A stretch of DNA of 24,000 bases, taken from the NCBI RefSeq assembly GCF_002005305.1, contig NZ_CP014782.1, positions 216,706 to 240,705 on the forward strand, in the 5' to 3' direction. Below are positions 6,025 to 24,000 of this stretch, piece by piece (the stretch's first letter is position 1; the number at the start of each line of letters is the position of its first letter). The stretch comes from Shewanella psychrophila. GTDB taxonomy: Bacteria > Pseudomonadota > Gammaproteobacteria > Enterobacterales > Shewanellaceae. Below the pieces are notes generated by a model. The model saw only the letters and a list, made by a program, of their open reading frames with translations. It was not told the origin of the DNA and did not search any database. A program made the position numbers and the translations under genes.

Positions 6025-6133
6025 TGTTATGGTTTACGGCCTGATTACGACTAATTTGAACAAGAGGTTTATGCTTTTCTATTTAAGCGTAAATACTGAG
6101 ACATTCTATCTAGTAACTCGAAAGGAAACTCAA

Positions 6134-6517
6134 ATGTCAGAAGTAACAGGTAAAATCCGCACTACGTTAAGAGTTGAGGGATTGGTGATATTGCTAGCCT
6201 CATTACTGATCTACCACAAGTTTTCTTTTAGTTGGTCAGAATTCGCATGGTTTTTTCTGGCTCCAGATCTTGCACTATTAGCCTATATTCATAGTGCTAA
6301 ACTCGGTTCCCTTGCCTATAACCTATCCCATTCGTTTATTGGCCCCTTAGTCACCTTGTTATTTGGCGTACTGGGGGATTCACAAGTTGCAATTCAAATT
6401 TCATTAATCTGGTGTGGACATATAGGCTTCGATAGAGCCTTGGGTTATGGCCTGAAGTATTCAAAAGGCTTCTCCTACACTCACTTAGGTCAAATTGGTA
6501 AGAGTCAAAAGACATAG
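6134..6517 (+). CDS. DUF4260-like small membrane protein
   Basis: The ATG at 6134 is preceded by AAGGAAA SD. The 127-aa product MSEVTGKIRTTLRVEGLVILLASLL...HIGFDRALGYGLKY has about 4 hydrophobic segments. The track ORF start at 6029 lies partly in repeat-derived sequence and lacks an SD. Confidence 0.6.
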   Translation: MSEVTGKIRTTLRVEGLVILLASLLIYHKFSFSWSEFAWFFLAPDLALLAYIHSAKLGSLAYNLSHSFIGPLVTLLFGVLGDSQVAIQISLIWCGHIGFDRALGYGLKYSKGFSYTHLGQIGKSQKT

Positions 6518-6550
6518 TAAATATGGGGAGCTGCTAGGTGGCAACTTGTT

Positions 6551-6580: not shown

Positions 6581-7070
6581 ACTGTATTAGATGTTTTATC
6601 TGGTCCGTTAGCCTAGGCTATGTTCATAACCGAGATCATATTTTTAATCGGCAATCTTATTATTGCGCTCAATAATATTTAGTTCCCACTAGTACTTATA
6701 TACTACTTAACTAACTCAGCTCTATTTGTTTTTTAATATGTGGGATTGAGTGTTCTACTCTAAGAACTATTATTGCTGGTAATGTTTTATATGGGTTGGA
6801 TAACATTGGTGCAGCCGCACCAATATTGACCGCGTATAGAGTAAGGTTACTTGTCATTGTGAATATAATTGATCATGAATAAAAATTTAACATTCATTAA
6901 TTAACTAATCACCATTTTAAATATATAATCATTATTATGTTTTACTCCTTGTATTAATTCGTGGCGTTCGTAAGTAGTTAAAGCGATGTTGTTATATACC
7001 ACTGCAATGAGTTTGACACTGGGGTTATACCCAGAAAGCGTAGTGTTGAATAACTTGGAAGGATAGGTCC

Positions 7071-8973: not shown

Positions 8974-8994
8974 TACTGTAAATAGTGTCAGGTA
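8974..8994. promoter_or_regulatory. lux-box-like site 1 (CTGT-N8-TCAG)
   Basis: taCTGTaaatagtgTCAGgta. It shares CTGTnAnnAGTGnCAG with site 2, which lies 95 bp away. It lies in the intergenic region between the RibD-like gene and luxI. Confidence 0.4.
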
Positions 8995-9068: not shown

Positions 9069-9088
9069 AGCTGTTATAAGTGACAGTA
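9069..9088. promoter_or_regulatory. lux-box-like site 2 (perfect CTGT-N8-ACAG core)
   Basis: agCTGTtataagtgACAGta is 20 bp long. Its dyad core is identical to that of the V. fischeri lux box (ACCTGTAGGATCGTACAGGT). It is centred about 147 bp upstream of the luxI ATG. Confidence 0.5.
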
Positions 9089-9225: not shown

Positions 9226-9813
9226 ATGAATAACACAGTATTTACTCAACATAATCTGCAAACTTCTGCTTCAGAACTTATTCTCGATGGCATCATGAGA
9301 TTACGTTACGAAACGTTCATCAAACGACTGGACTGGGATATTGCTTCTACAGATGGTCGCGAACAAGATTGCTTCGATGACAACGAAGCGCATTACATCG
9401 CCGTTCTTGAGGATGATAAAGATGTTATTGGCTGTTGGCGAGCCAGGAGTACCTTGCAAGATTATATGCTCAAGTCGGTGTTTCCCGAACTGTTACAGGG
9501 GGAGTCGGCACCTGTGCAAGATGATATCTGGGAGATCAGCCGTTTTGCCGTGAAAAAAGGCTCAGCTGAAACCCAGAAAGGATATTTTGGCGATGTCACC
9601 ATAGATCTTGTTAAGTCGTTTTATGATTTTGCGAAACAAAATGGAATAAAAAGCTATGTTACGGTAACCACAGTTGCCTGCGAAAGATTATTGCGTCAGT
9701 TAGGGGTGAATTTAAGGCGCATGGGCGATGGCAAGGTTAAGCAGATTGGTGTCGAGCGAACCGTAGCCCTGTGGATCCAAGTGGATGAAGATTTAAATAT
9801 CATTTCCCATTAA
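9226..9813 (+). CDS. luxI: LuxI-family acyl-homoserine-lactone synthase
   Basis: 195 aa. LRYETFIKRLDWDI....GREQDCFDD..AHYIAV......VIGCWRA..T...YML..VFPELL.G...P....IWEISRFAV is the canonical autoinducer-synthase N-terminal signature (R, F, W, D, D, R, E, SRF). Confidence 0.9.
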   Translation: MNNTVFTQHNLQTSASELILDGIMRLRYETFIKRLDWDIASTDGREQDCFDDNEAHYIAVLEDDKDVIGCWRARSTLQDYMLKSVFPELLQGESAPVQDDIWEISRFAVKKGSAETQKGYFGDVTIDLVKSFYDFAKQNGIKSYVTVTTVACERLLRQLGVNLRRMGDGKVKQIGVERTVALWIQVDEDLNIISH

Positions 9814-9851: not shown

Positions 9852-10682
9852 CTAAGATAGGTGAAAGGTTGCGACAGCTAATCGCTCAGCTACTCCAGGT
9901 CTAAGGTGAGAAATCAAATCATAGCTGACCCTCAAGAGTTTATTTGCATCTGCCTGCAAGCGTTTATGATTGGGGGTGAACAATAGCTGTCGATTGTCTA
10001 CGTCTATGGCAACTAAACGTGCAAGGGTAAAACTCAGGTTATCTCCAGGTTCGCTGAGGGCCTTGAATAAACTTTCTTTGGCCGAAAACACCAGTGTAAT
10101 GGCCAGCTCAAAACTGAGTTCGCTCTCCTCGACGCAGACTCGTTCTTGGTTCGACAAAATATACCGTGCTATTCCCTCGGCTTGTTTTTCATTGACTGTA
10201 AACTCAATATCCACGCCCACGCGACATGGATGAGGGGATGCTAGTGTCATGGCTAAGGCAAATTCACCACTGTGACTTATTGAGCCATAAAGCCCATCTT
10301 CCCATGAAGGTTTGCCACAGGGCGAGGTGCCGATCTTGATAGGCTGGAGCTGTGCCGGTTCCATTTCAGCAATATTCAGGATATTTTCCTGAGCCAGGCT
10401 GCTAACCGCGACAGCGGCGCAAAGTCGCCCAGCAAGAAAGTCTTGTTGACGCTTCTTACCCCAGGTCTTATAAAAATCTGTGTTTGGAAACCATAGTGCC
10501 ATGTCATTGGAGGAAAAGTTTTCGCGGTTAAAATGACCTAAAGTGATCACACAAGGGGACGATTCTATTTGCTGACCAAGATGACTCACCTGGATGAAAT
10601 CATCTTTAAAACAGCTGCAGAGTCTAGGGGACACTCGTGTCGTCTCATGGCTAACATGTTTATTTATCACTAAATTAGTCAA
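9852..10682 (-). CDS. 4'-phosphopantetheinyl transferase, EntD/Sfp type
   Basis: ...KKRQQDFLAGRLCAAVAV...GKPSWEDGLYGSISHSGEFALAMT...VGVDIE...FSAKESLFKAL aligns by eye to E. coli EntD. I prefer the TTG start at 10682 because it has AAAGGAG 8 nt upstream and does not overlap the preceding gene. The track start at 10754 would overlap the TE gene by 53 nt. Confidence 0.8.
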   Translation of the reverse strand: MTNLVINKHVSHETTRVSPRLCSCFKDDFIQVSHLGQQIESSPCVITLGHFNRENFSSNDMALWFPNTDFYKTWGKKRQQDFLAGRLCAAVAVSSLAQENILNIAEMEPAQLQPIKIGTSPCGKPSWEDGLYGSISHSGEFALAMTLASPHPCRVGVDIEFTVNEKQAEGIARYILSNQERVCVEESELSFELAITLVFSAKESLFKALSEPGDNLSFTLARLVAIDVDNRQLLFTPNHKRLQADANKLLRVSYDLISHLRPGVAERLAVATFHLS

Positions 10683-10701: not shown

Positions 10702-11472
10702 TTATGCGTTTGCCTCGATGGCTCGCTCATGTGCATGCTGGATCTGCTCGGCAACCCAAGCGCTGTGACTGCGAATAAAGAAATGACCCGCTTTAATTGT
10801 CTTTAATGGGGTGCTTGGCGGTAAGTGTTGTCGCCAAGCTTGCAATGATGTCTCTTCAATAAAGGTGTCTTCTGTCGCGCCTAATACCAGAGCCGGATGA
10901 GGATAGTATTGCTGACAGGCATTATGGGTCTCACACAGGGCCAAATCTGCGCGGATCACAGGTAAAATCCACTGTTTGAGTATCGACATTGACACCTTCA
11001 TTCCGGCGAAACTTTCGAAACGATTGAGATAATTGATCATCTCTCTATCATCCATCAGTGCATTGGGCTTAAATGGATACAGCTCCGAAGGCGCACGCTG
11101 CGCCCCTATAGCCAATAGCTCTGGGGGACAGGCCTCTTTTGCCAGTTGCTTGGCGATATACCATGCAAACCAAGCCCCCATACTGTGACCATATAGCATT
11201 ATCCTGTGCTGTTTTATGGCGGGTAAAATAGCTTGGCTCATGGCATTCGCAGCGGTCTTAAAGTCAGTATAAAAGGCTTCATGTCGGCGGCTATCCCGGC
11301 CAGGGAATTCCAGTGGCACCAAGTGGTAAGCATCACCAAAGAGTCCACTCAATCCGGCAAAGCTGGCACTATTTCCTCCGGCAAATGGAAAACATATTAT
11401 ATTCACTTTATCTGGCTTTATGACCTGTCCTAACCAGTCACTCGCCATAGCGTCGTCATGAGCTGTACACAT
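10702..11472 (-). CDS. Type II (editing) thioesterase, alpha/beta hydrolase
   Basis: ICFPFAGGNSASFAGL and the nucleophile elbow LYGHSMGAWFA are typical of GrsT/RifR-like TEII. I prefer the ATG at 11472 (MCTAHDD...) because of a GGAG 6 nt upstream. The alternative GTG start is at 11484. Confidence 0.85.
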   Translation of the reverse strand: MCTAHDDAMASDWLGQVIKPDKVNIICFPFAGGNSASFAGLSGLFGDAYHLVPLEFPGRDSRRHEAFYTDFKTAANAMSQAILPAIKQHRIMLYGHSMGAWFAWYIAKQLAKEACPPELLAIGAQRAPSELYPFKPNALMDDREMINYLNRFESFAGMKVSMSILKQWILPVIRADLALCETHNACQQYYPHPALVLGATEDTFIEETSLQAWRQHLPPSTPLKTIKAGHFFIRSHSAWVAEQIQHAHERAIEANA

Positions 11473-11487
11473 ATTCATCTCCACTGG

Positions 11488-12603
11488 TTAGCTGTGATTC
11501 AGGGATGTATCTGCAGATCCATAGTATTTCGCTCCTACTTTACGAACCTGGCGTTTAAGTAAGCGCTGGGTGAGTCCACGTAGCCAGTTTATCCGTGAGC
11601 CAGCTATCAGATCCGAGAAAATCCAGATCACTGTCAGCGGTAGATGATTCGGCGCCCCATGAATATCATCGACTTGTAAAATTTGATTGTGTGGAACGTT
11701 CGAACGAACCGCTTGCATATCATCAAGGGGAATAATCTCATCGCGGCTACTGGCAAGATAATGGATATTGGCGGAGATTCTTTCCAGAGATTCAGCCGAG
11801 AGGCCCCAATCGGAGATATGGGATTTAACCTCTGTGTTATCGCAGTCGAATATATGGGCTAAGGTATTGTAGGTAATATCCGGGATTGCTAATTTATTGC
11901 TACCATCACCAAAAAAGTCTGCAATAGGAGCGCCTACCGTGGTAATGGTATGAATATTACTGTTTTCGAGCGAGGCGTTCATGGCTAAATGGCCACCAAA
12001 GCTAAAGCCTATGACGTGCACATCTTGGGTATTAGCACGCCCCTGTAAACGTTTCAGTATACGACGAAATAACTGACTGTCGTGGGCATCGTATGGCAAG
12101 GTATTTTCTCCCACGCCGGGTAATTCCGTCAGCACCACACAATAACCAAGTTTTTTTGCCATGACTAACAAGCGGTGCCATTGCTCCTTGATTGATACTA
12201 TGCCGCCAAGTACCACAACCACAGGTTTGTTCTTGTCCAGACCTGCGGTATAGCAGCCAAAATCAGGGTCAGAAAAGCGCCAGTATTCAACATCGGGTAG
12301 TGTGTTCGCCAGCCATTGGCGGTATAACTGTTGGCATTTATTGAGCGCTTTTTTACGAGCAGGGTCACCTACATAGGGGAAGCGCGCCAAGTTATACAAT
12401 TGAATAGAGTCTTGAATATCTCCCGAAGATTCGGCCCGTTCGGCTAAGGATGACAGCACATAAGCCCAACTTCTCGGATCGCCGTGAATATCATTTTCTA
12501 TGTTGTGTAAGGCAAAATCTAATACGCTTTCATCTAATTTCTGCGCCCGACTATGAAGGCGCGCAAACGCCTTCAGCTCAGCGACATCATGTTGCTTTAT
12601 CAT
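11488..12603 (-). CDS. Alpha/beta-hydrolase fold protein (candidate Agg5/AbyA5/ChlD4-type tetronate acetate-eliminating enzyme)
   Basis: 371 aa. GxSxG elbow HVIGFSFGGHLA, with an N-terminal helical region reminiscent of FrsA/DUF1100 hydrolases. The start overlaps the upstream stop (ATGA). The specific role is inferred from cluster context. Confidence 0.7.
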   Translation of the reverse strand: MIKQHDVAELKAFARLHSRAQKLDESVLDFALHNIENDIHGDPRSWAYVLSSLAERAESSGDIQDSIQLYNLARFPYVGDPARKKALNKCQQLYRQWLANTLPDVEYWRFSDPDFGCYTAGLDKNKPVVVVLGGIVSIKEQWHRLLVMAKKLGYCVVLTELPGVGENTLPYDAHDSQLFRRILKRLQGRANTQDVHVIGFSFGGHLAMNASLENSNIHTITTVGAPIADFFGDGSNKLAIPDITYNTLAHIFDCDNTEVKSHISDWGLSAESLERISANIHYLASSRDEIIPLDDMQAVRSNVPHNQILQVDDIHGAPNHLPLTVIWIFSDLIAGSRINWLRGLTQRLLKRQVRKVGAKYYGSADTSLNHS

Positions 12604-13817
12604 GATATTTTCCCCATGGCTAATGAGCGTTGACGCTTGTATGAGATCTGATTGAGGATGCGATTCTGTATAAATGGCATGCGATTTAAAATGAAATAAA
12701 AGGCTTTACGCATACTCAGCATGAGTTTCGAGTCGCTACAGAGCATTTTTTCCTGGCGTTGTTGCATTTGAGTCACAAAATCGACTTGTGGTTGGCGCTC
12801 GCTTTGATAGCTTCTTAAAAATTGAGTATCGACGGCTTTATCTGATTGCACCTGTTGAGCCAGCATAGGTGCCAAAGTCATGGCGTCCTGAATGGCAATA
12901 TTTACGCCTTGACCCAGTAATGGGGTAAGTGTGTGCGCCGCATCGCCAATCATGATCAGGCCATCTTTACCCCACAGAGGCGCATGAGTGGTAAAGATGT
13001 CTAGTACATGGAGATCTTTCCAGCTGGTTATGTGCTTGCGAACATGTTGACCGAGTTCTGCGTTCACCTCATCAATCAGATTATAGAAACCATCTAGGCC
13101 TTCTTTCTTGAGAGCCGCGAATCCACCCTTGGGAATGTTCACTCCTGTACGGTATAGATCTGGGTAGGATGGCAGCAAGATGATGTGTTGAGCGCCATTG
13201 AGCAAGATATAGTATTTATGTTTATCCCAACCTTCAGGAATAGGCATCTTGCACCAAAGTACATCGCGCTCTTGTGGTGTTTTTGTGTAAGGAATGGCCG
13301 CTTTTTCACGGACTCTGGAATAACGACCGTCGGCGGCGATGATGGCTTTGGCATGGATGGACTTTTTCTCACCGGCTTCGCGATAAGTCACACCTATTAC
13401 GGTATCGTCTTTTTCGATGACACCGTCGAAGGCTGCGCCTCTGATCAATTTGGCATTTGGATATTGTGCCAGCTTCTCGGCAAGGGCATTGAGGAAGACC
13501 GGCTGAGGCACATCGATCATGAATTTATGCTGATAGGGCATTTTAGTGTAATTCATGTTGAGTCGTTTGGAGTCCCTCTCCCAAACCTCCAGTTCTTTAA
13601 ATATCATATAACCATGTTCATTTATCGCATCTGCGATACCCAATTCGTGAAAGATGCCAACGGTATCAGGCTGAATGGACTCACCGCGAAATGAACGCTC
13701 ATAACTTTTGTTGGCCTCCAGCACTGTGACATCGACGCCACTCTTTGCCAATTTAAGCGCTAAAACCAGGCCAGCTGGGCCACCGCCTACTATGCATATT
13801 TGACTAGTCTGTTCCAT
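12600..13817 (-). CDS. Class A FAD-dependent monooxygenase (UbiH/PHBH-like)
   Basis: 405 aa. GxGxxG ICIVGGGPAGLVLALKLAKSG, DG motif AADGRYSRVR, and GD motif MIGDAAHTLTPLLGQGVNIAIQDA. AGGAG SD is present. Confidence 0.9.
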   Translation of the reverse strand: MEQTSQICIVGGGPAGLVLALKLAKSGVDVTVLEANKSYERSFRGESIQPDTVGIFHELGIADAINEHGYMIFKELEVWERDSKRLNMNYTKMPYQHKFMIDVPQPVFLNALAEKLAQYPNAKLIRGAAFDGVIEKDDTVIGVTYREAGEKKSIHAKAIIAADGRYSRVREKAAIPYTKTPQERDVLWCKMPIPEGWDKHKYYILLNGAQHIILLPSYPDLYRTGVNIPKGGFAALKKEGLDGFYNLIDEVNAELGQHVRKHITSWKDLHVLDIFTTHAPLWGKDGLIMIGDAAHTLTPLLGQGVNIAIQDAMTLAPMLAQQVQSDKAVDTQFLRSYQSERQPQVDFVTQMQQRQEKMLCSDSKLMLSMRKAFYFILNRMPFIQNRILNQISYKRQRSLAMGKIS

Positions 13818-13827: not shown

Positions 13828-14595
13828 CTAAGTGTCTGCTTTTATGGACTCTAGGCCCAGTTTTAACTCTTCTAGTAAATCGGCTGCTTCGGCACCATCG
13901 ATGACGCGATGGTCGAAGGCCAAAGTGAGGGGTAACATATCGCGGATCACCACCTCGCCCTTTACTACCAGAGCCTTGGCTTGGATCTGTCCAAGCCCTA
14001 AGGTGATCGATGCGCCAACCTGAGGAATCAAAAGGCTGACAGGCTTCTGTCCCAGTGAGGTGATGGCAAATGAGCCCTGTAACTTATGTTTTAGCGTCGG
14101 CTTACTCATTAACTTGCCAAACAACCAACGTCCAAGTGGCACAGGTAACGACTGAAGCTTCTTCAGTCGGGGAAACTCTGGCCATAACGCGAGTGGTGTC
14201 TGTTTAAGAAACCTCACTTCCGACTGAATTTGCGCCAGAGATTTTGTTTCTGCATGTGCAATCAAGCCTGAACCGACACAGCGAACGCCATCAATCTCTT
14301 TATCCAGTGCAAACTTGCCGTGAACGGCTGGAAAACGATGTAACTTGGGGCGCCAACGTCCGGTTACGACTCCATTGGCGTCAGGGTGATTTGCCAGTGC
14401 CCGCCCCGTGGCATACATGACCATAGCGACGATTCCTGGCACTTCGGCTTGTTCTTGGCCTTTGGCTGTGGCTCTGAGTGTATTCATTGCTGTGGCATCG
14501 ATATCCGTGGATAAGAACACGGGACTGTATTGTGTCGACTGCTCTAAAAAATAGAGGGTATGACGACGAGAAAGAGGAAATGCGGTGTTATTCAT
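13828..14595 (-). CDS. 2-oxoacid dehydrogenase E2-like acyltransferase catalytic domain, standalone (candidate Agg4/AbyA4/ChlD3-type)
   Basis: 255 aa with no lipoyl or E3-binding domains. Catalytic motif LAFDHRVIDGAEAA (DHRxxDG). The start overlaps the ACP stop (ATGA). Confidence 0.8.
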   Translation of the reverse strand: MNNTAFPLSRRHTLYFLEQSTQYSPVFLSTDIDATAMNTLRATAKGQEQAEVPGIVAMVMYATGRALANHPDANGVVTGRWRPKLHRFPAVHGKFALDKEIDGVRCVGSGLIAHAETKSLAQIQSEVRFLKQTPLALWPEFPRLKKLQSLPVPLGRWLFGKLMSKPTLKHKLQGSFAITSLGQKPVSLLIPQVGASITLGLGQIQAKALVVKGEVVIRDMLPLTLAFDHRVIDGAEAADLLEELKLGLESIKADT

Positions 14596-14825
14596 AACGC
14601 TTCCTCTAAGGTGGCGAGCCGATGGATATCGCCTAAGGTGTTCGCTTTCAGGAAGGCAGGAATAGGAACTGGGTGTCCTGTCAGCATTTCGAGTTCAGAG
14701 AGTAAGCGGACAGCATGAAGTGAGTCCCAACCTTCGAGATCGACTAGCTGCATCGACATAGCCGACTCGGTTAGCTTAATGTCCATAAAATCTTCAACTA
14801 GTGCGATAAATTCATGTTTATGCAT
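14592..14825 (-). CDS. Acyl carrier protein (candidate glyceryl carrier)
   Basis: Start at MHKHEFIALVEDF... (ATG at 14825, overlapping the fkbH-like stop by 8 nt). Ppant-site motif LEGWDSLHAVRLL. The longer track ORF (to 14894) would overlap the upstream gene by 77 nt. Confidence 0.8.
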   Translation of the reverse strand: MHKHEFIALVEDFMDIKLTESAMSMQLVDLEGWDSLHAVRLLSELEMLTGHPVPIPAFLKANTLGDIHRLATLEEAL

Positions 14826-16722
14826 TGCAGCTTTCCTCATTAATCGTGGTGAGATGCCCTGGCAGTGGCGCAATTTCAGACAGGGTGTGAACAAACAATT
14901 GGCTTTTGGGAGTGCCAGTTGCTAGTGCCGATTGCGGCTGATGTGTCAGCGCTGTTGTGGTGAATCCCATAGATGGGTAGAAGGTGGCCATACGTTGGTT
15001 TTTATGGCTTAGTATGAATTCAGCCGTGACACTTGTTTTACCTGACGCCACAGCTTGGGCGAGCAATAAACTGATGGCTGCTTGTTCGATACCGCGAGAA
15101 AAAACTCGGCAGCTGAGCAGCATATTATCGATATGAGAAGTGTCCAAGGTCATGGATATCAGTACCGCACCAATCAAGCCATAATCACCAAATCTGTCAT
15201 GACTTCTCAGTACCCAAATCGATTTATTTTCATTTTCCAGATAGTCAATTACCGCTGCTTCGCTCAGACGCTGTGTGGTCATATTAAATTGATTGGTGCG
15301 TTGGCTGAGGTTGGCAATACGTGGCACATCTTCGGCTTTTGCATTAGTCAGACTCAGTTCAATATTCAGACTTTCAAGGAAAGAGGTCAGATCTTGACTA
15401 GAGGCCTTAAGCGCCTGTCGGTGAGTTTCCTGACGATACTTATGGGGGCGGTCCTTATCTTCGGCACTGACGGACATCATCAGAAAATCATTCATATTGG
15501 CCAACATAGCGGCAAAATATGCAGGTTCTCCGGTGACTTGCAGAGATGCCAGCGAAGGGTGTGCCGATTGCACTTCTTCACATTCAAAACTACTGTCGTC
15601 GACGAAAACAAAGCTGTCGATACCAATATTGAGGGACTCGGCAATGTCGGCTACCGCCTGACTTTTTGGCGACCAGTTGGCCTGTATATGAAGAAAGTCA
15701 CTGGCTTTTAGCACCATGTCTTGTCGTTTTTCAAATACGTTATCGACGTTTTCTCTGTCATTTTTACTGCTGATGTTGAGTAACACGCCTTGTGACGCAA
15801 ATTGCTTGATGACCCGCTGCAACAGCAGGTGTGCTTCACCGGCTGGGTTGCCATCCAGGCCAATGCCATCCACTCCATCGTCGCCTAATATCCCGCTCCA
15901 TAAGGTATTGTCCAGATCCAGAATCAGGGCTTTCTTACTGTGTCCCAGAGTCGACGCCGCCAAAGCCGAGACCTCACGGATCAATATGTCCATCAAGCCA
16001 TCTGAATAGGGCAGTTTTGCATAGAATGCCAATCGCTCGTCGCGCCAGCGAGACGTGCCAGTCATCAAACATTGCATGTCCAGCACCAACACGCGCTGAC
16101 TCAGTTCTGTCATTGCCAGCATATCCAGATTGAACTGCAGCCAGAGTCGGCTTAATTGATTTCTTTCCCGTGATCCCAGCATTTGACGCTGTAGCGATAA
16201 TGGCAGCGGAATGGTATTGAATATTGCCATTCCTCGAGTGTGTTCGAGTAGTTGCCTGACACCCTGTTGGCAGAGCGTCAGTACTTGTTCACACGCCTCT
16301 TGTATATCGGCTAAGCTCCAGGGGGTAGGCAATCTCTCTAAGATGATGTGTTCATCGAGCAGGCATAAGGAGTAGTCTGCCTCGGCCTTGATAAAGTCGC
16401 TATTTACATCGAGCACATCGGGTGCAAACTGATTGTAATCAGAAAGGTATAGCGATGGCATAAGTCCTTTTTCCAGGCTGCCAGCCGTCAGCAGTTCGCC
16501 GACCATAGCGGTACTGAAGGAGCCTGTTACCGCAAAATTGACTGGTTTAAAGCCTTGAGTATTCAGCCAGTCTTGAGAGATTTTGCGACACTTTCGTCCT
16601 GCACTGACCCTAGCTGTCGGATCCGTTGTGCGCCTCAAAGTTTGCATAAGCTGGTGGCGGTCACAGATGTTAACGCCAGCTAAATTAACTGCAAATTCAT
16701 TATTTTCGTTAGCAGATATCAT
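14818..16722 (-). CDS. FkbH-like HAD-IIIC phosphatase / glyceryl-S-ACP synthase
   Basis: 634 aa. HAD motif I in the FkbH context reads KALILDLDNTLWSGILGDDGVDGIGL, followed by LLNISSKN and FVDDS motifs and a C-terminal GNAT-like region. The length matches FkbH homologues of tetronate pathways. The start overlaps the upstream stop (ATGA). Confidence 0.85.
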   Translation of the reverse strand: MISANENNEFAVNLAGVNICDRHQLMQTLRRTTDPTARVSAGRKCRKISQDWLNTQGFKPVNFAVTGSFSTAMVGELLTAGSLEKGLMPSLYLSDYNQFAPDVLDVNSDFIKAEADYSLCLLDEHIILERLPTPWSLADIQEACEQVLTLCQQGVRQLLEHTRGMAIFNTIPLPLSLQRQMLGSRERNQLSRLWLQFNLDMLAMTELSQRVLVLDMQCLMTGTSRWRDERLAFYAKLPYSDGLMDILIREVSALAASTLGHSKKALILDLDNTLWSGILGDDGVDGIGLDGNPAGEAHLLLQRVIKQFASQGVLLNISSKNDRENVDNVFEKRQDMVLKASDFLHIQANWSPKSQAVADIAESLNIGIDSFVFVDDSSFECEEVQSAHPSLASLQVTGEPAYFAAMLANMNDFLMMSVSAEDKDRPHKYRQETHRQALKASSQDLTSFLESLNIELSLTNAKAEDVPRIANLSQRTNQFNMTTQRLSEAAVIDYLENENKSIWVLRSHDRFGDYGLIGAVLISMTLDTSHIDNMLLSCRVFSRGIEQAAISLLLAQAVASGKTSVTAEFILSHKNQRMATFYPSMGFTTTALTHQPQSALATGTPKSQLFVHTLSEIAPLPGHLTTINEESCNA

Positions 16723-17723
16723 ATGGCCTCCTGCTCAAGCACCAAGCCAGACTTCAACCATTTAGAGGACTCTATCGCTATCAAGAGGGCGGTTTGATTA
16801 TCTTCAATTCGATCTTGTAAGTGACTGAGCTGAACGAAGGGAAGTGCGTTACCATTATTACCTGTTTCGTGGACACAGCTAATAACCTGATCATCCTTCA
16901 AGCCTAAGTGTCGGATGATGTTATGTGTCATCCTTCCAGATAGCTGAGGGGGCAAATACCAATCTACTTCACCCGCAGTCTGCGTCGACAAGCTATCTAG
17001 AATCTCTGCGGCTAAACCGGGGACATGCTTTTCGATGGCCTTGTAATCTTCCATCAGCATGGTGTCATCACTGTCACGTAGGCCGCGCCAATTGACTATC
17101 TGTCCCGGTGGCAGATCTAAGCCGGTGTAATGACATTCGAACTGAGTTAGCTTCCAGCGCAATCCCGTTGCTTGGGTAGACATAATCATCGCCCCGGCGC
17201 CATCACCAAACAGCGCAAAGTTAATCTGTTCGTTGGCTTCACTTTGGCTGTAGTCTTTGAGAGGGTCGATAAACTTGGTACAGACATCGGCACCTATGAT
17301 GAGTCCGCGTCGATACTCACCACTTAACAATAAGGCTCGGGCCATAGACACGGCTTGCATCGCCCCGGTACAACCGGACTGCAGCTGGAAGGTCGCAATA
17401 TTGGCAGCGCCAAGCTTTTCCGCCACGAGATTGACCGTTGCAGGCATCAATTGATCCGGTGTTGCCGTGGCCATCACAATAAAATCCAGATCTTCACAGC
17501 CTATCTGCTCTATCTCCATGGCTTTTTGTGCCGCTTGTGTCGCTATGTCTGCTAGTGAGTTTTTTATTTCGCCAGTTTTCAAATCTGTAGTGAAGTAACG
17601 GCTACGATTTCCCAGGAATAAACTGACCCAATCGGCATTTAGCCCAAAACGTTCGGCAAGCAATGAATTATCTACCGGATCATTGGGCAGATAGTGTTGG
17701 CATTGATTAATATAAATAGTCAT
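16719..17723 (-). CDS. FabH-like KAS III family enzyme (candidate tetronate ring-forming condensing enzyme)
   Basis: 334 aa with a thiolase fold. The active-site Cys context is FQLQSGCTGAMQAVSMA, and a C-terminal ETGNNGNALPF aligns to the FabH GNTSAAS region. By my eye alignment, the region matching the FabH HQAN His motif reads PPQLSG. Confidence 0.85.
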   Translation of the reverse strand: MTIYINQCQHYLPNDPVDNSLLAERFGLNADWVSLFLGNRSRYFTTDLKTGEIKNSLADIATQAAQKAMEIEQIGCEDLDFIVMATATPDQLMPATVNLVAEKLGAANIATFQLQSGCTGAMQAVSMARALLLSGEYRRGLIIGADVCTKFIDPLKDYSQSEANEQINFALFGDGAGAMIMSTQATGLRWKLTQFECHYTGLDLPPGQIVNWRGLRDSDDTMLMEDYKAIEKHVPGLAAEILDSLSTQTAGEVDWYLPPQLSGRMTHNIIRHLGLKDDQVISCVHETGNNGNALPFVQLSHLQDRIEDNQTALLIAIESSKWLKSGLVLEQEAI

Positions 17724-17732: not shown

Positions 17733-20666
17733 CTATTTTAGGGGCAAGGTTGTTCGGTCCAGAATGGCCATTAAGTCGCCGACGGTTTGCACATCGAACA
17801 GTTCAGATAGTTCCGGCATGGCGTCTTCTCCTACCCGCTCACGTAGCTTATCGACCAGCTCAATTAAATTGACTGAATCTAGGCCCAGATCGGCGCTTAA
17901 ACGTTTGTCTGGGAGGATGAGCTCGGCTGGATGACCCGTCACGGAGGCGAGGACATCGATCACAAGACCGCTGATCTGTATGGCGGGTTTTTCTTTCAGC
18001 GGCTCTATGATTTTTTTCGAGCTAGTTATGGCTTGTTTGGAGTGAGTCGCTGGCTGGTGGGTACTCATTGACGTTTTGCGGAAGCGAGCCAGAGATTGGC
18101 GAGAAAAGTCAGTTAAATCGAAGGCAAAAGGCACTAGATCAGAATCCGATTCACTGGTGTTCAGGGCTGACCAGTTGATTGGCATACCTCGGCGGAACAG
18201 GGCCCTTAGGGTTTCGCAAAAGGTATTAATATCCTGGGGGTCTTCGATAGAGGAAGAGTAGAATTCACCAGTATTAGGGCCATTTTTGATCGCGAGCATA
18301 GATAGCACGGGAGCCGACCCCATCTCTATGCCTATGACTCCCTGTCCGCTGGGGATATCACCGAGTAAAGTATCGAAAGCAGGTTTGAACTTCACTGTAT
18401 TGACTAAGTGCCGAGACCAGTAATTTGCCTCTATGGCTTGTTGAACTTGCTTATTACCTGTGACTGTCGAGTACCAATTTAGCTGTGGAGCGTGATACTC
18501 GATCTTGCTGGCCGCAGCTTCTATATCTGACTTTGCCGCTGCCATTTGAGGGCTGTGGAAAGCATGGGTCACAGTGAGAGGCTTGATACGAACCTGCTTT
18601 TTTACGCCCCACATTCTTGCTGCTTCTATGGCTGCGCTGTCACCGGCAACGACAAATTGTGCATCGCTGTTCCAGACCGCAAGGGACAGGCCTGGAACAT
18701 CTTGCTGTAGTTCTGCCAAGGTTTCTCGTGAAGCTAATACCGCAGCCATTGCACCATTACCATTCACATCATCGATGGCGTCACCTCGGGCAATGACCAG
18801 AGATATAGCTTGCTCCATGGTCATCACACCCGCAATGCTTGCCGCTGCAAACTCGCCAATACTATGGCCTATTACAGCATCTGGCTTAAAACCAATTTCC
18901 ATCCACCATTGTGCCAGTGACCATTCGACGGCAAAGAGGACTGGTTGAGCAAAGCGAGCCTTGGTCAGCAAGCATGATGCTTGACTATCATTATCAATAA
19001 TTGGCATCAAAGAGCTGCCTGTTAGCTGTCGATAAACGGCATCGCATTGATCGAAGTAGCGACGGAGTCGAGGAAACGTCTTATATAGCCCTTTCATCAT
19101 TCCTGGGTACTGACAACCTTGGCCCGTAAACATAAATACCAGAGGAGCCTCATTGGCATCAAATGGTGCACGGTAAGTGGGTTTTCCCAATAGACGAGCA
19201 GATTCTTCAACTTCTTTACTGTTACGGCCAAAGCATAGGTCTCGTACCTGGCCTTGGCTTCTTAGCTGTTGATGCCCACTTGCCAATTGCTTTATGTCGG
19301 CGCCTTGAGAAAGGCTTCGAATTGCGGCATTTTTTTGCCTTTGAAAACCAGCTTCATCTTTGGCTGCGATAGGAATAAAGGCGGGTTCGGGAGCTGTGTT
19401 TACAACGGCGGATTTTGGTGAAGTAAATACCAGATGGGCATTGGTCCCGCCTAAGCCGAAGGAGCTGATGGCGAAGTGTTTCTTATGCTCGGCTCCCCAA
19501 GTTTCCCCATCACTGGAAAGTGCCAGATTTCCCTTGGCCACGAGTGGATTGGCTGTATCGGAAAATGGGTTAGCTGGGATCTTTCTGTGTTTGAGCATCA
19601 AGGCAACCTTGATAATGGAGGCCATTGCGGCGGCTGCTTCACAATGCCCAATTAGGGACTTTACCGAATCTATGCCGCAGGGGACTTTACGCTCTCCACG
19701 AAACACGCGATTAAGCGCATTAATTTCAATACGATCGCCTAAGGAGGTACCCGTGCCATGACATTCAATAAAATCTATGTCTGCAGGTTCCAGTGCTGCT
19801 TTGGAATAGCATTCTCGTAGCAGACTTTCTTGGGATGGTCCGTTAGGAGCGGTTAATCCATTACTCTGACCATCATGATTGATGTGTCCGGCGATGAAGT
19901 GACAATATTGGTTTCTGGCTAAGTGTTCGGGCTCAAGCACCACAGCCCCTATCCCTTCGGCGCGAATGATGCCATCGGCGTGATCTGAAAATGCATTACA
20001 GCGTCCACTGGGGGATAAGAGTCCGGCTTTTTGATAGAAGCGCTGCAATACTGGGGTAAGGATCGCATTGACCCCGGCGACAATGGCCAGATCACACTCA
20101 TCAGAACTTATCGCATTCCTCGCGTGCACCAGAGCCACTGCCGAGGAGGAGCATGCGGTCGCTATGGTCATACTCGGGCCTTTAAAGTCATATAAGTATG
20201 AGATACGGTTTGACAGTAAAGCGTGGCCTGTGCCCGTCACATGACCCGGCAACAAGGCATTGGTATCTTGAAACTGAAGTGTGGTCCAGTCATTAGCCAT
20301 GGCTCCGACAAACACCCCAACTTTTTGACCTCGAAGTGTCTTGGGGTTATAGCCAGCGTCTTCCAAGGCTTGCCAGACAATTTGCAGTAGCCAACGTTGC
20401 TGTGGATCCATTAAGGATGCTTCACGTCGATTGATTCCAAAGTGCTGATAGTCGAAGGCTTCAAGCTGCGAGACATAACCGCCTGGGACGGTCTGAAAAT
20501 AGGCCGTGTCTTGGGCATTATCAAACCACTCATCTGCCAGCCAACGTCCAGCAGGCAGAGGACATACGGCATTTTTTGCGGCACATATTTGCGCCCAATA
20601 TCCTTGCTTGTCATCTGCACCTGGAAATCGGCAAGCGACACCGGAAATAACGAGAGATTTCATCAT
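17733..20666 (-). CDS. Type I polyketide synthase, single module KS-AT-ACP
   Basis: 977 aa.
- KS: TACSSS (Cys172), ECHGTGT, IGHCEAAAA, GGTNAH.
- AT: GHSIGEFAAA and VTHAFHS (HAFH, malonyl-type).
- ACP: DLGLDSVNLIEL near the C-terminus.
No KR, DH, ER, TE or loading domain is present. Confidence 0.95.
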   Translation of the reverse strand: MMKSLVISGVACRFPGADDKQGYWAQICAAKNAVCPLPAGRWLADEWFDNAQDTAYFQTVPGGYVSQLEAFDYQHFGINRREASLMDPQQRWLLQIVWQALEDAGYNPKTLRGQKVGVFVGAMANDWTTLQFQDTNALLPGHVTGTGHALLSNRISYLYDFKGPSMTIATACSSSAVALVHARNAISSDECDLAIVAGVNAILTPVLQRFYQKAGLLSPSGRCNAFSDHADGIIRAEGIGAVVLEPEHLARNQYCHFIAGHINHDGQSNGLTAPNGPSQESLLRECYSKAALEPADIDFIECHGTGTSLGDRIEINALNRVFRGERKVPCGIDSVKSLIGHCEAAAAMASIIKVALMLKHRKIPANPFSDTANPLVAKGNLALSSDGETWGAEHKKHFAISSFGLGGTNAHLVFTSPKSAVVNTAPEPAFIPIAAKDEAGFQRQKNAAIRSLSQGADIKQLASGHQQLRSQGQVRDLCFGRNSKEVEESARLLGKPTYRAPFDANEAPLVFMFTGQGCQYPGMMKGLYKTFPRLRRYFDQCDAVYRQLTGSSLMPIIDNDSQASCLLTKARFAQPVLFAVEWSLAQWWMEIGFKPDAVIGHSIGEFAAASIAGVMTMEQAISLVIARGDAIDDVNGNGAMAAVLASRETLAELQQDVPGLSLAVWNSDAQFVVAGDSAAIEAARMWGVKKQVRIKPLTVTHAFHSPQMAAAKSDIEAAASKIEYHAPQLNWYSTVTGNKQVQQAIEANYWSRHLVNTVKFKPAFDTLLGDIPSGQGVIGIEMGSAPVLSMLAIKNGPNTGEFYSSSIEDPQDINTFCETLRALFRRGMPINWSALNTSESDSDLVPFAFDLTDFSRQSLARFRKTSMSTHQPATHSKQAITSSKKIIEPLKEKPAIQISGLVIDVLASVTGHPAELILPDKRLSADLGLDSVNLIELVDKLRERVGEDAMPELSELFDVQTVGDLMAILDRTTLPLK

Positions 20667-20753
20667 GTTCTCTTTTCCTTTATGGTTAAATATTTCAAAT
20701 TCATCGTCTTCTTGCCCATCGACTACCAGTCATTGCGCAGGGTAGGTGATAGG

Positions 20754-21008
20754 TCAGGCAAGTTGCGCGTTTTGCTCTTCGATCAGGAAGGCCGACATTT
20801 TTTCAATGGTGGGATAGTTCCATGTCAGCGTCGGCTCCACATCGATACCGATCAGGTCCTCAATATCTGCACATAGGCTCATTGCCGAGACTGAGTTAAT
20901 ACCGTATTCAGATAATGCGGTGGTCAGTTTGATGTCTTCCACAGGTTTACTGAGATACTCGGCAACCTTCTCTTGGATAAAAGTCATTAATTCGGTTTGT
21001 GTATTCAT
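20754..21008 (-). CDS. Standalone acyl/peptidyl carrier protein
   Basis: 84 aa. LSEYGINSVSAMSLCADIE is a carrier-protein Ser motif ((D/N)S). AGGAG SD lies 6 nt upstream. Confidence 0.85.
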   Translation of the reverse strand: MNTQTELMTFIQEKVAEYLSKPVEDIKLTTALSEYGINSVSAMSLCADIEDLIGIDVEPTLTWNYPTIEKMSAFLIEEQNAQLA

Positions 21009-21030: not shown

Positions 21031-22686
21031 TTAGTTATTGTCTGAATGGTTAGCTTTAGGTTGAAACATGAGTGAGGCCAAGGGATCGCCATCTGTGTCT
21101 TGTAGGTAATGGCTAATGGTGTCTGCAGCGCTCAGATAGTAGGTATTGGCTGACGGGTCACACATGGGCCGTGTCAGGCGCCAAAGCGTGATAAAGCCCA
21201 AGGCATGATGAATATCCTGACTATCGGTTGCGGTGATATTTCGTAGCACTGAAATGGCTGCAATCAGCTTGCAATAACGTGTTGCCGCGCCATAAATGTC
21301 CTGCTGAAGCGAGTCGAAGCACTGGGTTTTCAACGCTTCTAAGTCTGTCAGCAGGGATACCCATTCGGCTTGTTGGGCAAATAAGGCCCGGCAGCGTGCC
21401 GTTAATGTGGGCAAGAGAGAAAGTAGTGGATCTGATTTACTGCAGGACAGGCGCAGGGCAGACAGCCAGGACGTGTTGCTGGTATTTAAGGCCGTTAATA
21501 TTGAACTGGCATCGGATTGTGATTTCTCTGCCAGTAATCTTGGCAGCATATGCACTAAGCTAGTCTGGCAGACTAAGCTTCCGGCGTGGCCGAAACTCAC
21601 CACTGGAAAGTCTCTGACCAGCTTCTCGAACATGCCGAAATCATCGTTCATAAGGTAGTAACGAGCGCCTATTAGGCTGCCCATAGACTTGATTGCCTGC
21701 TTCATCAATGGGGGTAAGAAATATTTACTGGCTGAGCTATAACCGTTAGCGAATTGCGGAAATGCCTGTAAAGCGTGTCGCAGTAAGCTTGCCATTTCAC
21801 CAGCAAGCCAAACATCTGCGGTGGCTTCGGCAAGTTCTTTACGGTAAACCGGTATGGCAAATAAATTGTCACCATACAGGACGCGGTTTTGTGCGAAACG
21901 TGTGAGTATTTCCAGACCATTTCGGGCCGAGAATTGGCTGATAGCCGGTAGTAAGGTGCGGGTGATCTGGAATGCTTTCAAGGCATATTCGCCAGCGCGT
22001 CCCTGTTCACCAATCAGGCAAGAGTCGGCGATGAAGACACGATCGAAATAGATCCCCGAGATATGACAATTACGTACGCCTAAGGTGTCGAAGCGCCTCT
22101 CTATGCTCACTCCTTTCTGGTTTAATTCTGTCTGAGTCAGTAGAAATAAGCTGTGGCGACATGCTGGATTGTCATTGCCTGTATCGGCAAATAGCACCAA
22201 GCCATGGGCGCGGGCGAGGTTGTTGACGACCTCTTTACAGCCAGAAAGGAGATAGCCGCCCTCAACCTTAGAGGCCTTAAATGTCATGGCTGTTAAGTCA
22301 TTACCCGCCTGCAGTTCGTGATAGGCAATCGCAATGCGTCGGTCGTCACTCAGTAGAGCGGCAAGGGTTCGCTTCTGTTCATCGTTGCCGGCAACGGCCA
22401 GGTTGGTTGCCGCCATAAATGCGGTAAGGCAATAGCCCAGTCCCAGCGCCAGATCCTGACGGCACATCTCTCCCATTGCACTGGTCAGTGTCTCTAAGGT
22501 CACGCTCTCGTTATCCAGCAACCAGGTGGCGAGTAAATTACCCAGACCTGCCTGATGTATCACAGATTCCGCTGCCGTGTTGATTTCACCCGTGCGATCG
22601 AAGCTCAAAATTGCACTGGCTTTGAAGGCTGGGTGATGGTGATTAGCTTGGGCCAGCGCCGAGGATACATTGATAAAATCAGACAT
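21031..22686 (-). CDS. Acyl-CoA dehydrogenase-fold protein with long C-terminal extension
   Basis: 551 aa. ACAD middle and C-terminal domain pattern: YLLSGCKEVVNNLARAHGLVLFA...LFLL...GVSIERRFDTLGVRNCHISGIYFDRVFI...LIGEQGRAGEYALKAFQITRT.... No Glu at the position aligning to the MCAD YEGT motif (reads SFGHAGS). The start overlaps the upstream stop by 8 nt and has an AAGGAG SD. Confidence 0.75.
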   Translation of the reverse strand: MSDFINVSSALAQANHHHPAFKASAILSFDRTGEINTAAESVIHQAGLGNLLATWLLDNESVTLETLTSAMGEMCRQDLALGLGYCLTAFMAATNLAVAGNDEQKRTLAALLSDDRRIAIAYHELQAGNDLTAMTFKASKVEGGYLLSGCKEVVNNLARAHGLVLFADTGNDNPACRHSLFLLTQTELNQKGVSIERRFDTLGVRNCHISGIYFDRVFIADSCLIGEQGRAGEYALKAFQITRTLLPAISQFSARNGLEILTRFAQNRVLYGDNLFAIPVYRKELAEATADVWLAGEMASLLRHALQAFPQFANGYSSASKYFLPPLMKQAIKSMGSLIGARYYLMNDDFGMFEKLVRDFPVVSFGHAGSLVCQTSLVHMLPRLLAEKSQSDASSILTALNTSNTSWLSALRLSCSKSDPLLSLLPTLTARCRALFAQQAEWVSLLTDLEALKTQCFDSLQQDIYGAATRYCKLIAAISVLRNITATDSQDIHHALGFITLWRLTRPMCDPSANTYYLSAADTISHYLQDTDGDPLASLMFQPKANHSDNN

Positions 22687-24000
22687 AGCTTATCTCCTTG
22701 GTGGGCTTTTCAGCTCTTGTAGCCTTTGAATCCTCTCTAGTCTGGGCAAGTTTGGCGTCGACTTCGCCACGAATTGATAAATTGAGCGGAGAAAAAAGGT
22801 TGTTGTCATCGAGTTGCTGGCGTACCAGTTTTAGGCAATGCATGTCCTTTAGCGCGTCTTGATTGCCGAGCAGCAGATCTATGCACTCCTCTACCCAACT
22901 AAATGAGCGGAAGGATCGAGATAAGCGGTTACGGTTGTAAAGGAAGGTGAGCAAGGTCATGGCGGCGAGTTGTAAGTTGCAGTAACGTTTCGCCAAGGAA
23001 AACCGTTGCGCCGATGGGTGACCTAGTTCAACGGGTAAAGCCTGTACCAAGCCATCTAGTTCGGTAAGTCTGGCTTGAATTTGGACCAATTTTTCGGTGA
23101 GAACCGGACACTCACCTGTCATAGATTCGGCTCTCTTTAACCCGGCAGCCAGCCAGTCACCACGCATAGTGAACAGGGAGAGTGAATCTCGGTCGAATGT
23201 CGGCAGTTCTGTATCGATACAGAACAAGGCATCTAACATCTGAGGCGAAATAGCGTTTACTGATTTCTCTCTATGGCGTGCAAGTGTCGGTAATTGAAGG
23301 GCGATAGCCTGTAGGTTAACGGCGGTATTACCATCGAAGAGAGAAATCAAACGAATATCGCGCAACATCTTGCCGAAGATATCGGTTTGCTCACCAAGTT
23401 GGACGTAGGAGCGAACACCGAGCACATCCGAGAGCGATTCCATCATGGTTTCACATAGAACAGGAACAGAAGCTTTGGCGACGGCAGAGAGTAAACTCAT
23501 CTGCTGAGGAAAACACTGTATGGCTCGACTGATCACTTGGGTCGCTATGTCAGCGATGTACATCTGCGTGGCACTGGTCGCTAACACCTGACGAATATTG
23601 GCTATGTCGATCAAAGCTTGATTACCCGAGCGACGTTGCTGAGCAAATTCCACTGCGAGTCGTAGGCCTGTATCAGCAGCGCCGCAAGAGAGGGCGGCAC
23701 ATAGAGTGCGGGAAAGTTGGAAGCCTTTAAGTGTGATATCCAGGCCATGACCTTCTTTGCCAATCAGGGCATCATGATTAACCTCGAGGTTTTGAAATTG
23801 AATCCCACTTATATCGGCGCCCTTTATACCATGGGTCACCGCTTTCGGCACCTGACTAAAGCTTTGTGGCGGATGATCTTTCTTACGCACTAAAAATAAT
23901 GAAAAATCACGAGATTGGCCCTGATGATCGGTACGGGCAAAGACACTGAGAGCCTGTCCCCGAGTGGCGTTGTTTATCAGGTATTTTTCACCGTTAAGGC
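22679..24000 (-). CDS. Acyl-CoA dehydrogenase-fold protein (5' end beyond window)
   Basis: The frame stays open past the track's GTG at 23890 all the way to base 24000. Upstream translation reads ...LNGEKYLINNATRGQALSVFARTDHQGQSRDFSLFLVRKK..., the typical ACAD beta-domain. Downstream reads GIKGADISGIQFQNLEVNHDALIGKEGHGLDITLKGFQLSRT.... The YEGT-equivalent reads LFDGNT. Confidence 0.8.
   Translation of the reverse strand, partial: LNGEKYLINNATRGQALSVFARTDHQGQSRDFSLFLVRKKDHPPQSFSQVPKAVTHGIKGADISGIQFQNLEVNHDALIGKEGHGLDITLKGFQLSRTLCAALSCGAADTGLRLAVEFAQQRRSGNQALIDIANIRQVLATSATQMYIADIATQVISRAIQCFPQQMSLLSAVAKASVPVLCETMMESLSDVLGVRSYVQLGEQTDIFGKMLRDIRLISLFDGNTAVNLQAIALQLPTLARHREKSVNAISPQMLDALFCIDTELPTFDRDSLSLFTMRGDWLAAGLKRAESMTGECPVLTEKLVQIQARLTELDGLVQALPVELGHPSAQRFSLAKRYCNLQLAAMTLLTFLYNRNRLSRSFRSFSWVEECIDLLLGNQDALKDMHCLKLVRQQLDDNNLFSPLNLSIRGEVDAKLAQTREDSKATRAEKPTKEISYV

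Follow-up and report, generated by a model that had tools for sequence, protein, structure and literature searches.

The 24,000-nucleotide stretch of Shewanella psychrophila DNA analysed here (the window) encodes on its minus strand a 977-residue type I polyketide synthase (PKS) made up of a ketosynthase (KS), an acyltransferase (AT) and a single acyl carrier protein (ACP) domain, preceded by a small free-standing carrier protein (ACP1). Both proteins probably constitute the priming and single-extension part of a 13-gene operon of the acyl-tetronate type. The PKS is identical to WP_077750795.1/AQS35440.1. The end of the operon that lies outside the window was read from the Logan contig L001, which is identical to the window across 16,268 bases, has the reverse orientation and adds 6.6 kb past position 24000 (L001 position 6667 corresponds to window position 24000). 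From ACAD1, which codes for a protein of the acyl-CoA dehydrogenase (ACAD) fold, to the gene of a phosphopantetheinyl transferase (PPTase), all genes of the operon are on the minus strand, with overlaps of 4-8 nt or gaps of 9-87 nt. The PKS and its domains are located as follows.

17733..20666, minus strand: type I PKS, KS-AT-ACP, 977 residues (Pfam, NCBIfam and motif positions)
19422-20660, minus strand: KS domain, approximate limits
18282-19139, minus strand: AT domain, approximate limits
17757-17978, minus strand: ACP domain, approximate limits

The E-values of the PKS domains are far beyond chance, with Pfam matches to ketoacyl-synt (2.5e-75, residues 3-248), Ketoacyl-synt_C (2.9e-38), Acyl_transf_1 (1.7e-51, residues 510-772) and PP-binding (1.5e-08, residues 902-967). 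The Cys-His-His triad of the KS is present as Cys172 in TACSSS (170-175), His303 in HGTGT (303-307) and His341 in GHCE (340-343), and is invariant in six orthologues. The AT carries GHSIGE (600-605) with Ser602, the carboxylate-binding Arg627 and the malonyl-type motif HAFH (701-704), and is predicted from these motifs to be malonyl-specific; the ACP has its attachment residue, Ser931, within LGLDS (927-931). The catalytic residues of the whole protein are invariant in the same six orthologues (38-100% identity), with the exception of one AT that has GHGTGE. A preliminary description of this DNA had read the PKS as a KS, a malonyl-type AT and one ACP; each of the motifs that it named was found in place, Pfam and NCBIfam agree with it, and the malonyl assignment stands as a motif prediction. 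It had also stated that reductive, loading and thioesterase (TE) domains are absent, which holds equally well. No further Pfam domain was found in the PKS at E <= 0.01, and NCBIfam adds only generic PKS, FabF and FabD models. The post-AT linker ends at VPFAF (845-849), the first helix of the ACP lies near residue 897, and the roughly 45 unassigned residues in between, rich in Ser, Thr and Lys, are too few for a ketoreductase (KR), dehydratase (DH), enoylreductase (ER), methyltransferase or TE domain, so that a hidden domain of any of these kinds is excluded. An AlphaFold2 model of the PKS, built on a six-sequence alignment, had a mean pLDDT (predicted local distance difference test score) of 65 and is too poor to serve as evidence, residues 837-895 being unstructured in it, as fits a linker.

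The genes that lie upstream of the PKS would supply its starter chain, and they comprise the following.

L001 4463-6211, beyond window position 24000 and upstream of both ACAD genes: fatty acyl-AMP ligase (FAAL), a 582-residue adenylating enzyme (solved relatives, NCBIfam)
22679..24000, minus strand, cut by the window end and reaching 24445 if continued (L001 6222-7988): ACAD1, long ACAD-fold protein, 588 residues in full
21031..22686, minus strand: ACAD2, long ACAD-fold protein, 551 residues (Acyl-CoA_dh_M 7.5e-11, Acyl-CoA_dh_1 8e-08)
20754..21008, minus strand: ACP1, free 84-residue carrier, proposed loading ACP of the FAAL (PP-binding 9e-14)

The 84-residue carrier ahead of the PKS had been recognized in the preliminary description, and its open reading frame and PP-binding match bear this out. 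The attachment residue of ACP1 is Ser39 in YGINS. Its best solved relatives are 4HKG (1.8e-11), 2N98 and then the N-terminal ACP of Pks13. Both 4HKG, which we take to be the free-standing carrier protein of the pathway encoded by Acinetobacter A1S_0112-0119, and the Pks13 domain, whose chain is delivered by the FAAL FadD32, are partners of FAAL-type enzymes. ACP1 is kept at the same position in seven loci, where its orthologues share the motifs YG(I/V/L)(D/N)S and EPT.xWDYPTI and are clearly distinct both from the PKS ACP and from ACP2, a second discrete carrier encoded farther downstream. On the strength of these relatives and of its own motifs, ACP1 is best read as the loading ACP of the FAAL, which would pass the chain to the KS in trans. 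The same description had suggested that the ligase missing from the window might lie past position 24000, and it is there, on L001, that the FAAL was found. All the best solved relatives of this enzyme are FAALs (7R7E-G at 1e-141, 3KXW, FadD32, FadD23 and FadD28), and so are its best full-length NCBIfam models, which score below their curated cut-offs (NF004509 at 2e-135, with 452 bits against a cut-off of 775 bits).

Between the FAAL and ACP1 genes lie those of the two ACAD-fold proteins, ACAD2 overlapping ACAD1 by 8 nt. A 403-residue reading frame at 22679-23890 was discarded as an artefact of the window edge, the frame being open to the window end. Pfam middle and C-terminal domains give the pair an ACAD fold with its FAD-binding core. 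In an alignment to solved ACADs, the position of the catalytic Glu in the YEGT loop is occupied in ACAD1 by Asp371 (LFDGNT), which is invariant in 47 homologues of 37-45% identity, and the catalytic-base position of ACAD2 is occupied by His (FGHAGS). Both substitutions are kept in three orthologue pairs. The AlphaFold2 model of ACAD1 (pLDDT 91) has a core that superimposes on ACAD structures with TM-scores of 0.87-0.89, and at full length it aligns with the long dimeric type represented by VLCAD, ACAD9, 3OWA and 2Z1Q. According to this model, ACAD1 and ACAD2 probably form a VLCAD-like heterodimer in which ACAD1, through Asp371, would be the catalytic subunit. Tailoring of the ACP1-bound chain by this pair is plausible by analogy with two precedents: the FAAL-ACAD loading unit that feeds the tetronate-like nostovalerolactone (nvl) pathway of Nostoc (PMC9324945), and A1S_0113, an ACAD that acts on a carrier-bound starter (PMC5376624). 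A third precedent is an ACAD that serves terminal-alkene formation in PKS systems (bioRxiv 10.1101/736256).

Downstream of the PKS, the operon continues with these genes.

16719..17723, minus strand: FabH-like condensing enzyme of the tetronate type, 334 residues (PDB 5BY7, 7e-81)
14818..16722, minus strand: FkbH-like glyceryl-S-ACP synthase, 634 residues (TIGR01686 1.6e-94; DLDNT phosphatase motif)
14592..14825, minus strand: ACP2, discrete carrier, proposed to hold the glyceryl unit (PP-binding 1.4e-4; GWDS; 77 residues, also on L001)
13828..14595, minus strand: E2-type acyltransferase (2-oxoacid dehydrogenase catalytic domain) at the Agg4/AbyA4 position (PF00198 5.7e-23; DHRVIDG)
12600..13817, minus strand: group-A FAD monooxygenase, 405 residues, between the Agg4-like and Agg5-like genes (FAD_binding_3 1.8e-47)
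11488..12603, minus strand: AbyA5/Agg5-type enzyme of the alpha/beta-hydrolase fold, proposed to eliminate acetate (PDB matches to AbyA5)
10702..11472, minus strand: type II thioesterase (TEII), 256 residues (PF00975 1.8e-21; GHSMG)
9852..10682, minus strand: Sfp/EntD-type PPTase, 276 residues (4PPT_N 3.1e-12, ACPS 1.3e-11, EntD model 6.3e-29)

The FabH-like protein matches PDB 5BY7 at 7e-81 with 275 bits, whereas true FabH enzymes reach at most 120 bits (about 1e-33). The entry 5BY7 is presumably AbyA1, a guess of ours from the length of the protein. When compared with an E. coli FabH sequence that is consistent in length and triad positions, the protein keeps the Cys (Cys118, Cys112 in E. 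coli) and the Asn (Asn274 in E. coli), while His244 is replaced by Pro258 (LPPQLS versus VPHQAN). The LPPQLS motif is also found in 5BY7, and the Cys/Pro/Asn signature is present in 120 of the 120 closest relatives, which include proteins from Enterovibrio, Serratia, Rouxiella, Acidiferrobacter, Teredinibacter, cyanobacteria and many Streptomyces. The loss of the His that promotes malonyl decarboxylation would fit an enzyme joining two preformed thioesters. By these sequence marks the protein is a condensing enzyme of the tetronate clade and not a true FabH, and the signature is useful in annotation for telling the two kinds apart. The FkbH-like protein scores 316.7 against TIGR01686 (cut-off 146.65), and AbyA5 structures are the best solved relatives of the hydrolase (5NO5 at 1.3e-65, 4YWF at 6.4e-65). 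As judged by homology, the FabH-like protein, FkbH, ACP2, the E2-type acyltransferase and the AbyA5 homologue make up a complete tetronate cassette, known from such pathways as the five-gene "glycerate-utilisation operon" (PMC7489565). The stop codon of the PKS is separated by only 9 nt from the start of the FabH-like gene, and this spacing, together with the conserved synteny, gives contextual support to a role of the PKS in supplying 3-oxoacyl-S-ACP to the FabH-like enzyme. The preliminary description had proposed this role, with one malonyl extension of an acyl starter and no reduction, and all of its points that were open to computation agreed with the results.

From the domain content, catalytic residues, homologies and synteny, all of which were directly seen, we infer every chemical step of the following route. 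The FAAL would adenylate a free fatty acid and load it on ACP1, where the chain may be oxidized by the ACAD pair, with Asp371 of ACAD1 as the catalytic residue. The KS would then take the acyl group from ACP1, the AT would malonylate the ACP of the PKS, and one decarboxylative condensation would yield a 3-oxoacyl-S-ACP; because the PKS lacks KR, DH and ER domains, the chain would stay unreduced. In parallel, FkbH would use 1,3-bisphosphoglycerate to form glyceryl-S-ACP2, and the FabH-like enzyme would join both thioesters through C-C and C-O bonds, releasing a 3-acyl-5-hydroxymethyl-tetronate. This compound could be acetylated by the E2-type acyltransferase and converted into its 5-methylene form through elimination of acetate by the AbyA5-like enzyme, and the FAD monooxygenase may carry out a last oxidation of the product. 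The TEII and the PPTase would service the three carrier domains.

The same gene set has been found in a number of related loci.

L007: Enterovibrio paralichthyis, 45-78% identity gene by gene
L026: Serratia marcescens, PKS of 893 residues
L027: Acinetobacter sp., PKS of 625 residues consisting of KS-ACP, with a LuxR gene upstream
L024 and L025: gammaproteobacterial metagenome loci
JGI contigs of P0013 and P0028: the same gene set on both
L028: Xenococcaceae cyanobacterial metagenome-assembled genome, with two ACADs, an ACP and a 1005-residue KS-AT-ACP

The cyanobacterial locus L028 has exactly the architecture of the window. The front end formed by FAAL, ACAD and ACP also occurs next to other chemistry, as with the Rieske oxygenases of the Nostoc locus L029. 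A scan of a genome collection returned one true orthologue of the PKS (Enterovibrio), the other 16 loci being unrelated synthases of the polyunsaturated fatty acid type. An exhaustive representative search with the PKS is uninformative on the size of the family, for giant multimodular PKSs, with their summed scores, filled all of the top 150 places and crowded out the small orthologues. Mobile elements accompany some copies of the cluster and hint at horizontal spread: in L024, luxI and the FAAL gene are separated by a reverse transcriptase of the group-II-intron type (3005-4366), and the JGI contig of P0013 carries an IS66 transposase as well as a serine recombinase.

Several observations weigh against the assignment of a single-extension, tetronate-forming system. 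The canonical catalytic Glu of ACADs (the position of Glu376 in the medium-chain enzyme MCAD, in the YEGT loop) is in neither ACAD1 nor ACAD2, which makes the chemistry of the pair uncertain. The Acinetobacter orthologue of the PKS (L027 13683-15560) has lost the AT altogether, and in orthologue P0108 (L024 10001-12877) GHGTGE replaces the GHSxGE of the AT; both cases indicate that the KS and the ACP are the indispensable domains and that malonyl loading is possible in trans. Iteration is conceivable in principle for a non-reducing module. Finally, the FAD monooxygenase is kept in every related locus, and thus the end product may be something other than a simple tetronate; when this conservation is set beside the oxidative rearrangement proposed for nostovalerolactone, the ring itself may not stay a tetronate. 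The latter point leads to a serious, if on balance unlikely, alternative for the end product, in which the same front end would be followed by a Baeyer-Villiger-type rearrangement driven by the monooxygenase, giving a rearranged lactone in place of an agglomerin-like 3-acyl-5-methylene-tetronate. The position of the enzyme between the Agg4-like and Agg5-like genes in all related loci is in line with it, and the nvl cluster has the same succession of genes, NvlD, E, F and G followed by the MtmOIV-like NvlH and yields a delta-valerolactone (PMC9324945). The best solved relative of the window enzyme is 8UIU (1.2e-45), and weaker matches are obtained with PyrE3, ChlE3 and MtmOIV (structures 3FMW and 4K5R); the MtmOIV matches, however, are at the generic level of group-A flavoproteins (about 1e-11 to 1e-13), and the second Baeyer-Villiger monooxygenase (BVMO) of nvl, NvlQ, is absent here. 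This alternative leaves the role of the PKS unchanged.

The remaining alternatives do concern the PKS or its partners. Iteration of the KS-AT-ACP protein would give a tri- or tetraketide, off-loaded as a pyrone or as a longer poly-beta-keto tetronate, and nothing in the sequence sets a limit on the number of cycles in a protein devoid of reductive domains. We regard it as improbable, given that the proteobacterial loci have no product-template or cyclase domain, that translational coupling links the PKS to the FabH-like off-loading enzyme and that, in the logic of RK-682, the closest one described, the acyl chain is presented as a beta-ketothioester on RkC (PMC4979870). Another possibility is that the FabH-like enzyme draws 3-oxoacyl thioesters from fatty acid synthesis while the FAAL, the ACADs, ACP1 and the PKS make a separate lipid. 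The agglomerin pathway, which is not known to have a dedicated PKS, speaks for such a supply, but at least eight loci of distant taxa have FAAL, two ACADs, ACP, KS(-AT)-ACP and tetronate cassette in co-linear order and as a co-inherited set, and overlaps and short gaps join the genes of the front end to those of the cassette, so that we consider this division of labour very improbable. The least credible of the explanations is that FkbH, ACP2 and the ACAD-fold proteins prepare a hydroxymalonyl-ACP extender of the FkbH/FkbI type for the PKS, and that no tetronate is made. FkbI of the methoxymalonyl-ACP pathway is indeed an ACAD-fold enzyme without the usual catalytic base. Yet neither an FkbK-type 3-hydroxyacyl-CoA dehydrogenase nor an O-methyltransferase was found in any reading frame of the window or of L001, and the AT bears the malonyl-type HAFH motif; on these two grounds the extender explanation was rejected. 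In addition, the presence of FabH-like, E2-acyltransferase and AbyA5-like genes marks tetronate processing, and the ACADs, with 551-588 residues, stand beside the FAAL and ACP1 instead of ACP2 and also accompany FAAL and ACP in clusters without FkbH (L029). The hydroxymalonyl- and methoxymalonyl-ACP pathway has been summarized elsewhere (PMC7489565).

The assignment of a priming and single-extension unit ahead of a tetronate cassette can be compared with several known systems. For example, in the biosynthesis of RK-682, RkC is a KS-AT-ACP protein and RkA a ligase-ACP protein that loads the fatty acid. In this pathway of Streptomyces sp. 88-682, RkC has been described as the carrier of the 3-oxoacyl thioester (PMC4979870), RkD is the FabH-like enzyme that fuses the chain with glyceryl-ACP, RkE is FkbH-like and RkF is a discrete ACP (PMC4979870, PMC3625739). 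The window resembles it in having a dedicated PKS carrier that would feed a FabH-like/FkbH/ACP set, RkC being likened here by its described role and not by sequence. It differs from RK-682 in that the ligase and its ACP are separate proteins with two long ACAD-fold proteins between them, in the addition of Agg4/Agg5-type genes, a flavin monooxygenase, a TEII and a PPTase, and in its gammaproteobacterial host. The agglomerin pathway of Pantoea agglomerans (Agg1-5) is itself a Gram-negative acyl-tetronate pathway, and its five gene types recur in the window in identical order, although agglomerin has no flavin monooxygenase between the Agg4 and Agg5 positions. Agglomerin biosynthesis is not known to have a dedicated PKS, FAAL or ACAD, and its 3-oxoacyl partner comes from primary metabolism. 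In that pathway, Agg4 acetylates and Agg5 eliminates to leave an exocyclic methylene (PMC4979870; PMC7489565). The order of abyA1-A5 in the abyssomicin cluster is also that of the window apart from the inserted monooxygenase, and the proteins are of similar size (341, 622, 78, 251 and 355 residues versus 334, 634, 77, 255 and 371 in the window; PMC3625739); the abyssomicin chain, in contrast, comes from a seven-module PKS and is afterwards turned into a spirotetronate by a Diels-Alder reaction.

As for the front end, the nostovalerolactone cluster of Nostoc punctiforme shares with the window loading by a FAAL with an adjacent ACAD, homologues of RkD, RkE and RkF (NvlD, NvlE and NvlF), and an Agg4-like NvlG next to the FAD monooxygenase NvlH, with an Agg5-like NvlN (PMC9324945). 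However, chain extension in nvl involves four PKS modules, with reductive domains, where the window has one non-reducing module; nvl also possesses a second BVMO, and it has FAAL and ACAD fused in one protein, against two free-standing ACADs in the window. The A1S_0112-A1S_0119 operon of Acinetobacter baumannii (acinetin 505) likewise has genes for an AMP-ligase, an ACAD and a free-standing ACP at its start and a PPTase gene at its end (PMC5376624), but it has one ACAD against two, and downstream a nonribosomal peptide synthetase leading to a lipopeptide in place of a KS-AT-ACP and a tetronate cassette. The cluster is, as far as homology tells, a combination of RK-682-type priming and extension, acetylation-elimination of the agglomerin/abyssomicin type, a FAAL-ACAD front end like those of nvl and A1S_0112-0119, and a monooxygenase at the NvlH position.

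A further trait of the cluster is its proximity to quorum-sensing genes, which in the window, together with one more putative cluster member, are the following.

7071-7805, plus strand: LuxR (Autoind_bind 4.7e-28 and GerE)
7905-8876, minus strand: 323-residue reading frame between luxI and luxR
9226-9813, plus strand: LuxI (Autoind_synth 2.2e-29)
6029..6517, plus strand: DUF4260 protein, a cluster member in related loci (PF14079 4.1e-37)
LuxR regions beside the cluster in other loci: L007 1997-2728; L024 836-2747; L025 12852-13625; L027 6293-7063

Of the six loci with DNA sequence, five have a LuxR-type regulator beside the cluster. The regulators of the related loci are 28-40% identical to that of the window and keep the ligand-binding residues W-Y-D-P/A-W-G; this adjacency, with the conservation of these residues, suggests that the cluster is under the control of N-acyl-homoserine lactones (AHLs). 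Sensing of the tetronate instead of AHLs by LuxR was considered less likely, given the same conserved residues. A luxI gene next to the cluster is confined to the window and L024, and in the latter locus LuxR and LuxI are separated by an RsaM-like DUF4902 gene. The lux-box pattern CTG-N10-CAG is found 10 times on L001 against 7.0 expected, which is not significant, and none of the matches is in the FAAL promoter. The 323-residue reading frame has no match in Pfam, NCBIfam or PDB and no counterpart in the related loci.

Tetronates and their relatives include phosphatase inhibitors, antibiotics and, in Nostoc, cell-density mediators. If the assignment is true, quorum sensing controls the synthesis of a lipid-derived tetronate, or of a related lactone, in S. 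psychrophila and in relatives within Enterovibrio, Serratia, Acinetobacter and cyanobacteria. Among the systems compared above, nostovalerolactone is a cell-density-dependent mediator (PMC9324945) and the A1S_0112-A1S_0119 operon is activated by AbaI-dependent quorum sensing (PMC5376624). It is a doubtful but conceivable extension that the gene set makes small diffusible acyl-lactones acting as a second cell-density-linked mediator downstream of AHL quorum sensing, a proteobacterial counterpart of nostovalerolactone in which the Asp-type ACAD pair would install an unusual unsaturation in the starter. In the literature search, no paper was found on tetronates in connection with Shewanella, a proteobacterial FAAL or LuxR-regulated clusters like this one, nor any that describes this proteobacterial family. 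The components are known ones, and their conserved combination, linked to quorum sensing, is without a described product in the literature searched. The assignment may be called well supported but unsurprising. The cluster is compact (13 genes, a single extension module) and hence suited to heterologous expression, and it would be a convenient system for studying the hand-over from a FAAL-loaded ACP to a KS in trans, as well as the action of long Asp/His ACAD pairs on ACP-bound chains.

Some minor observations concern the regulatory region and the surroundings of the operon. Two lux-box-like palindromes, CTGTAAATAGTGTCAG (8976-8991) and CTGTTATAAGTGACAG (9071-9086), lie between the 323-residue reading frame and luxI, the pattern not being enriched overall; CTGTTATAAGTGACAG overlaps the -35-like hexamer in a putative promoter of luxI. 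On L001, a gene for a flavin and [2Fe-2S] reductase of the PaaE/phthalate-dioxygenase-reductase type (3300-4262, minus strand) is divergent from the FAAL gene; it is kept in Enterovibrio (62% identity), is absent from the remaining related loci and is a possible redox partner of the ACADs or of the monooxygenase. The 200-bp intergenic region between both genes contains two copies of ACCTGTCA (L001 4320-4392, approximately window 26275-26347), one of them within ACCTGTCACATATGATAGCAGG, an imperfect palindrome whose spacing is unlike that of a lux box and which is a possible regulator site. Farther along L001 (610-3257) there are genes for a membrane-fusion protein and a FUSC/AaeB-type pump, and other efflux systems flank related loci, namely a resistance-nodulation-division pump on the JGI contig of P0028 and ATP-binding cassette transporters in the Nostoc locus L029 (1-6182); all of them are candidates for export or self-resistance. 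In L024, L025 and two JGI contigs the DUF4260 gene belongs to the cluster, being placed in the TEII-PPTase interval or at the end, and in the window it is split from the operon by the block of LuxI, the 323-residue reading frame and LuxR, as if this block had been inserted. Finally, the GC content falls to 0.34-0.36 at window positions 4001-5000 and 6001-7000, compared with about 0.48 in the operon, these low-GC stretches being mostly intergenic and located around the RsmJ and DUF4260 genes.

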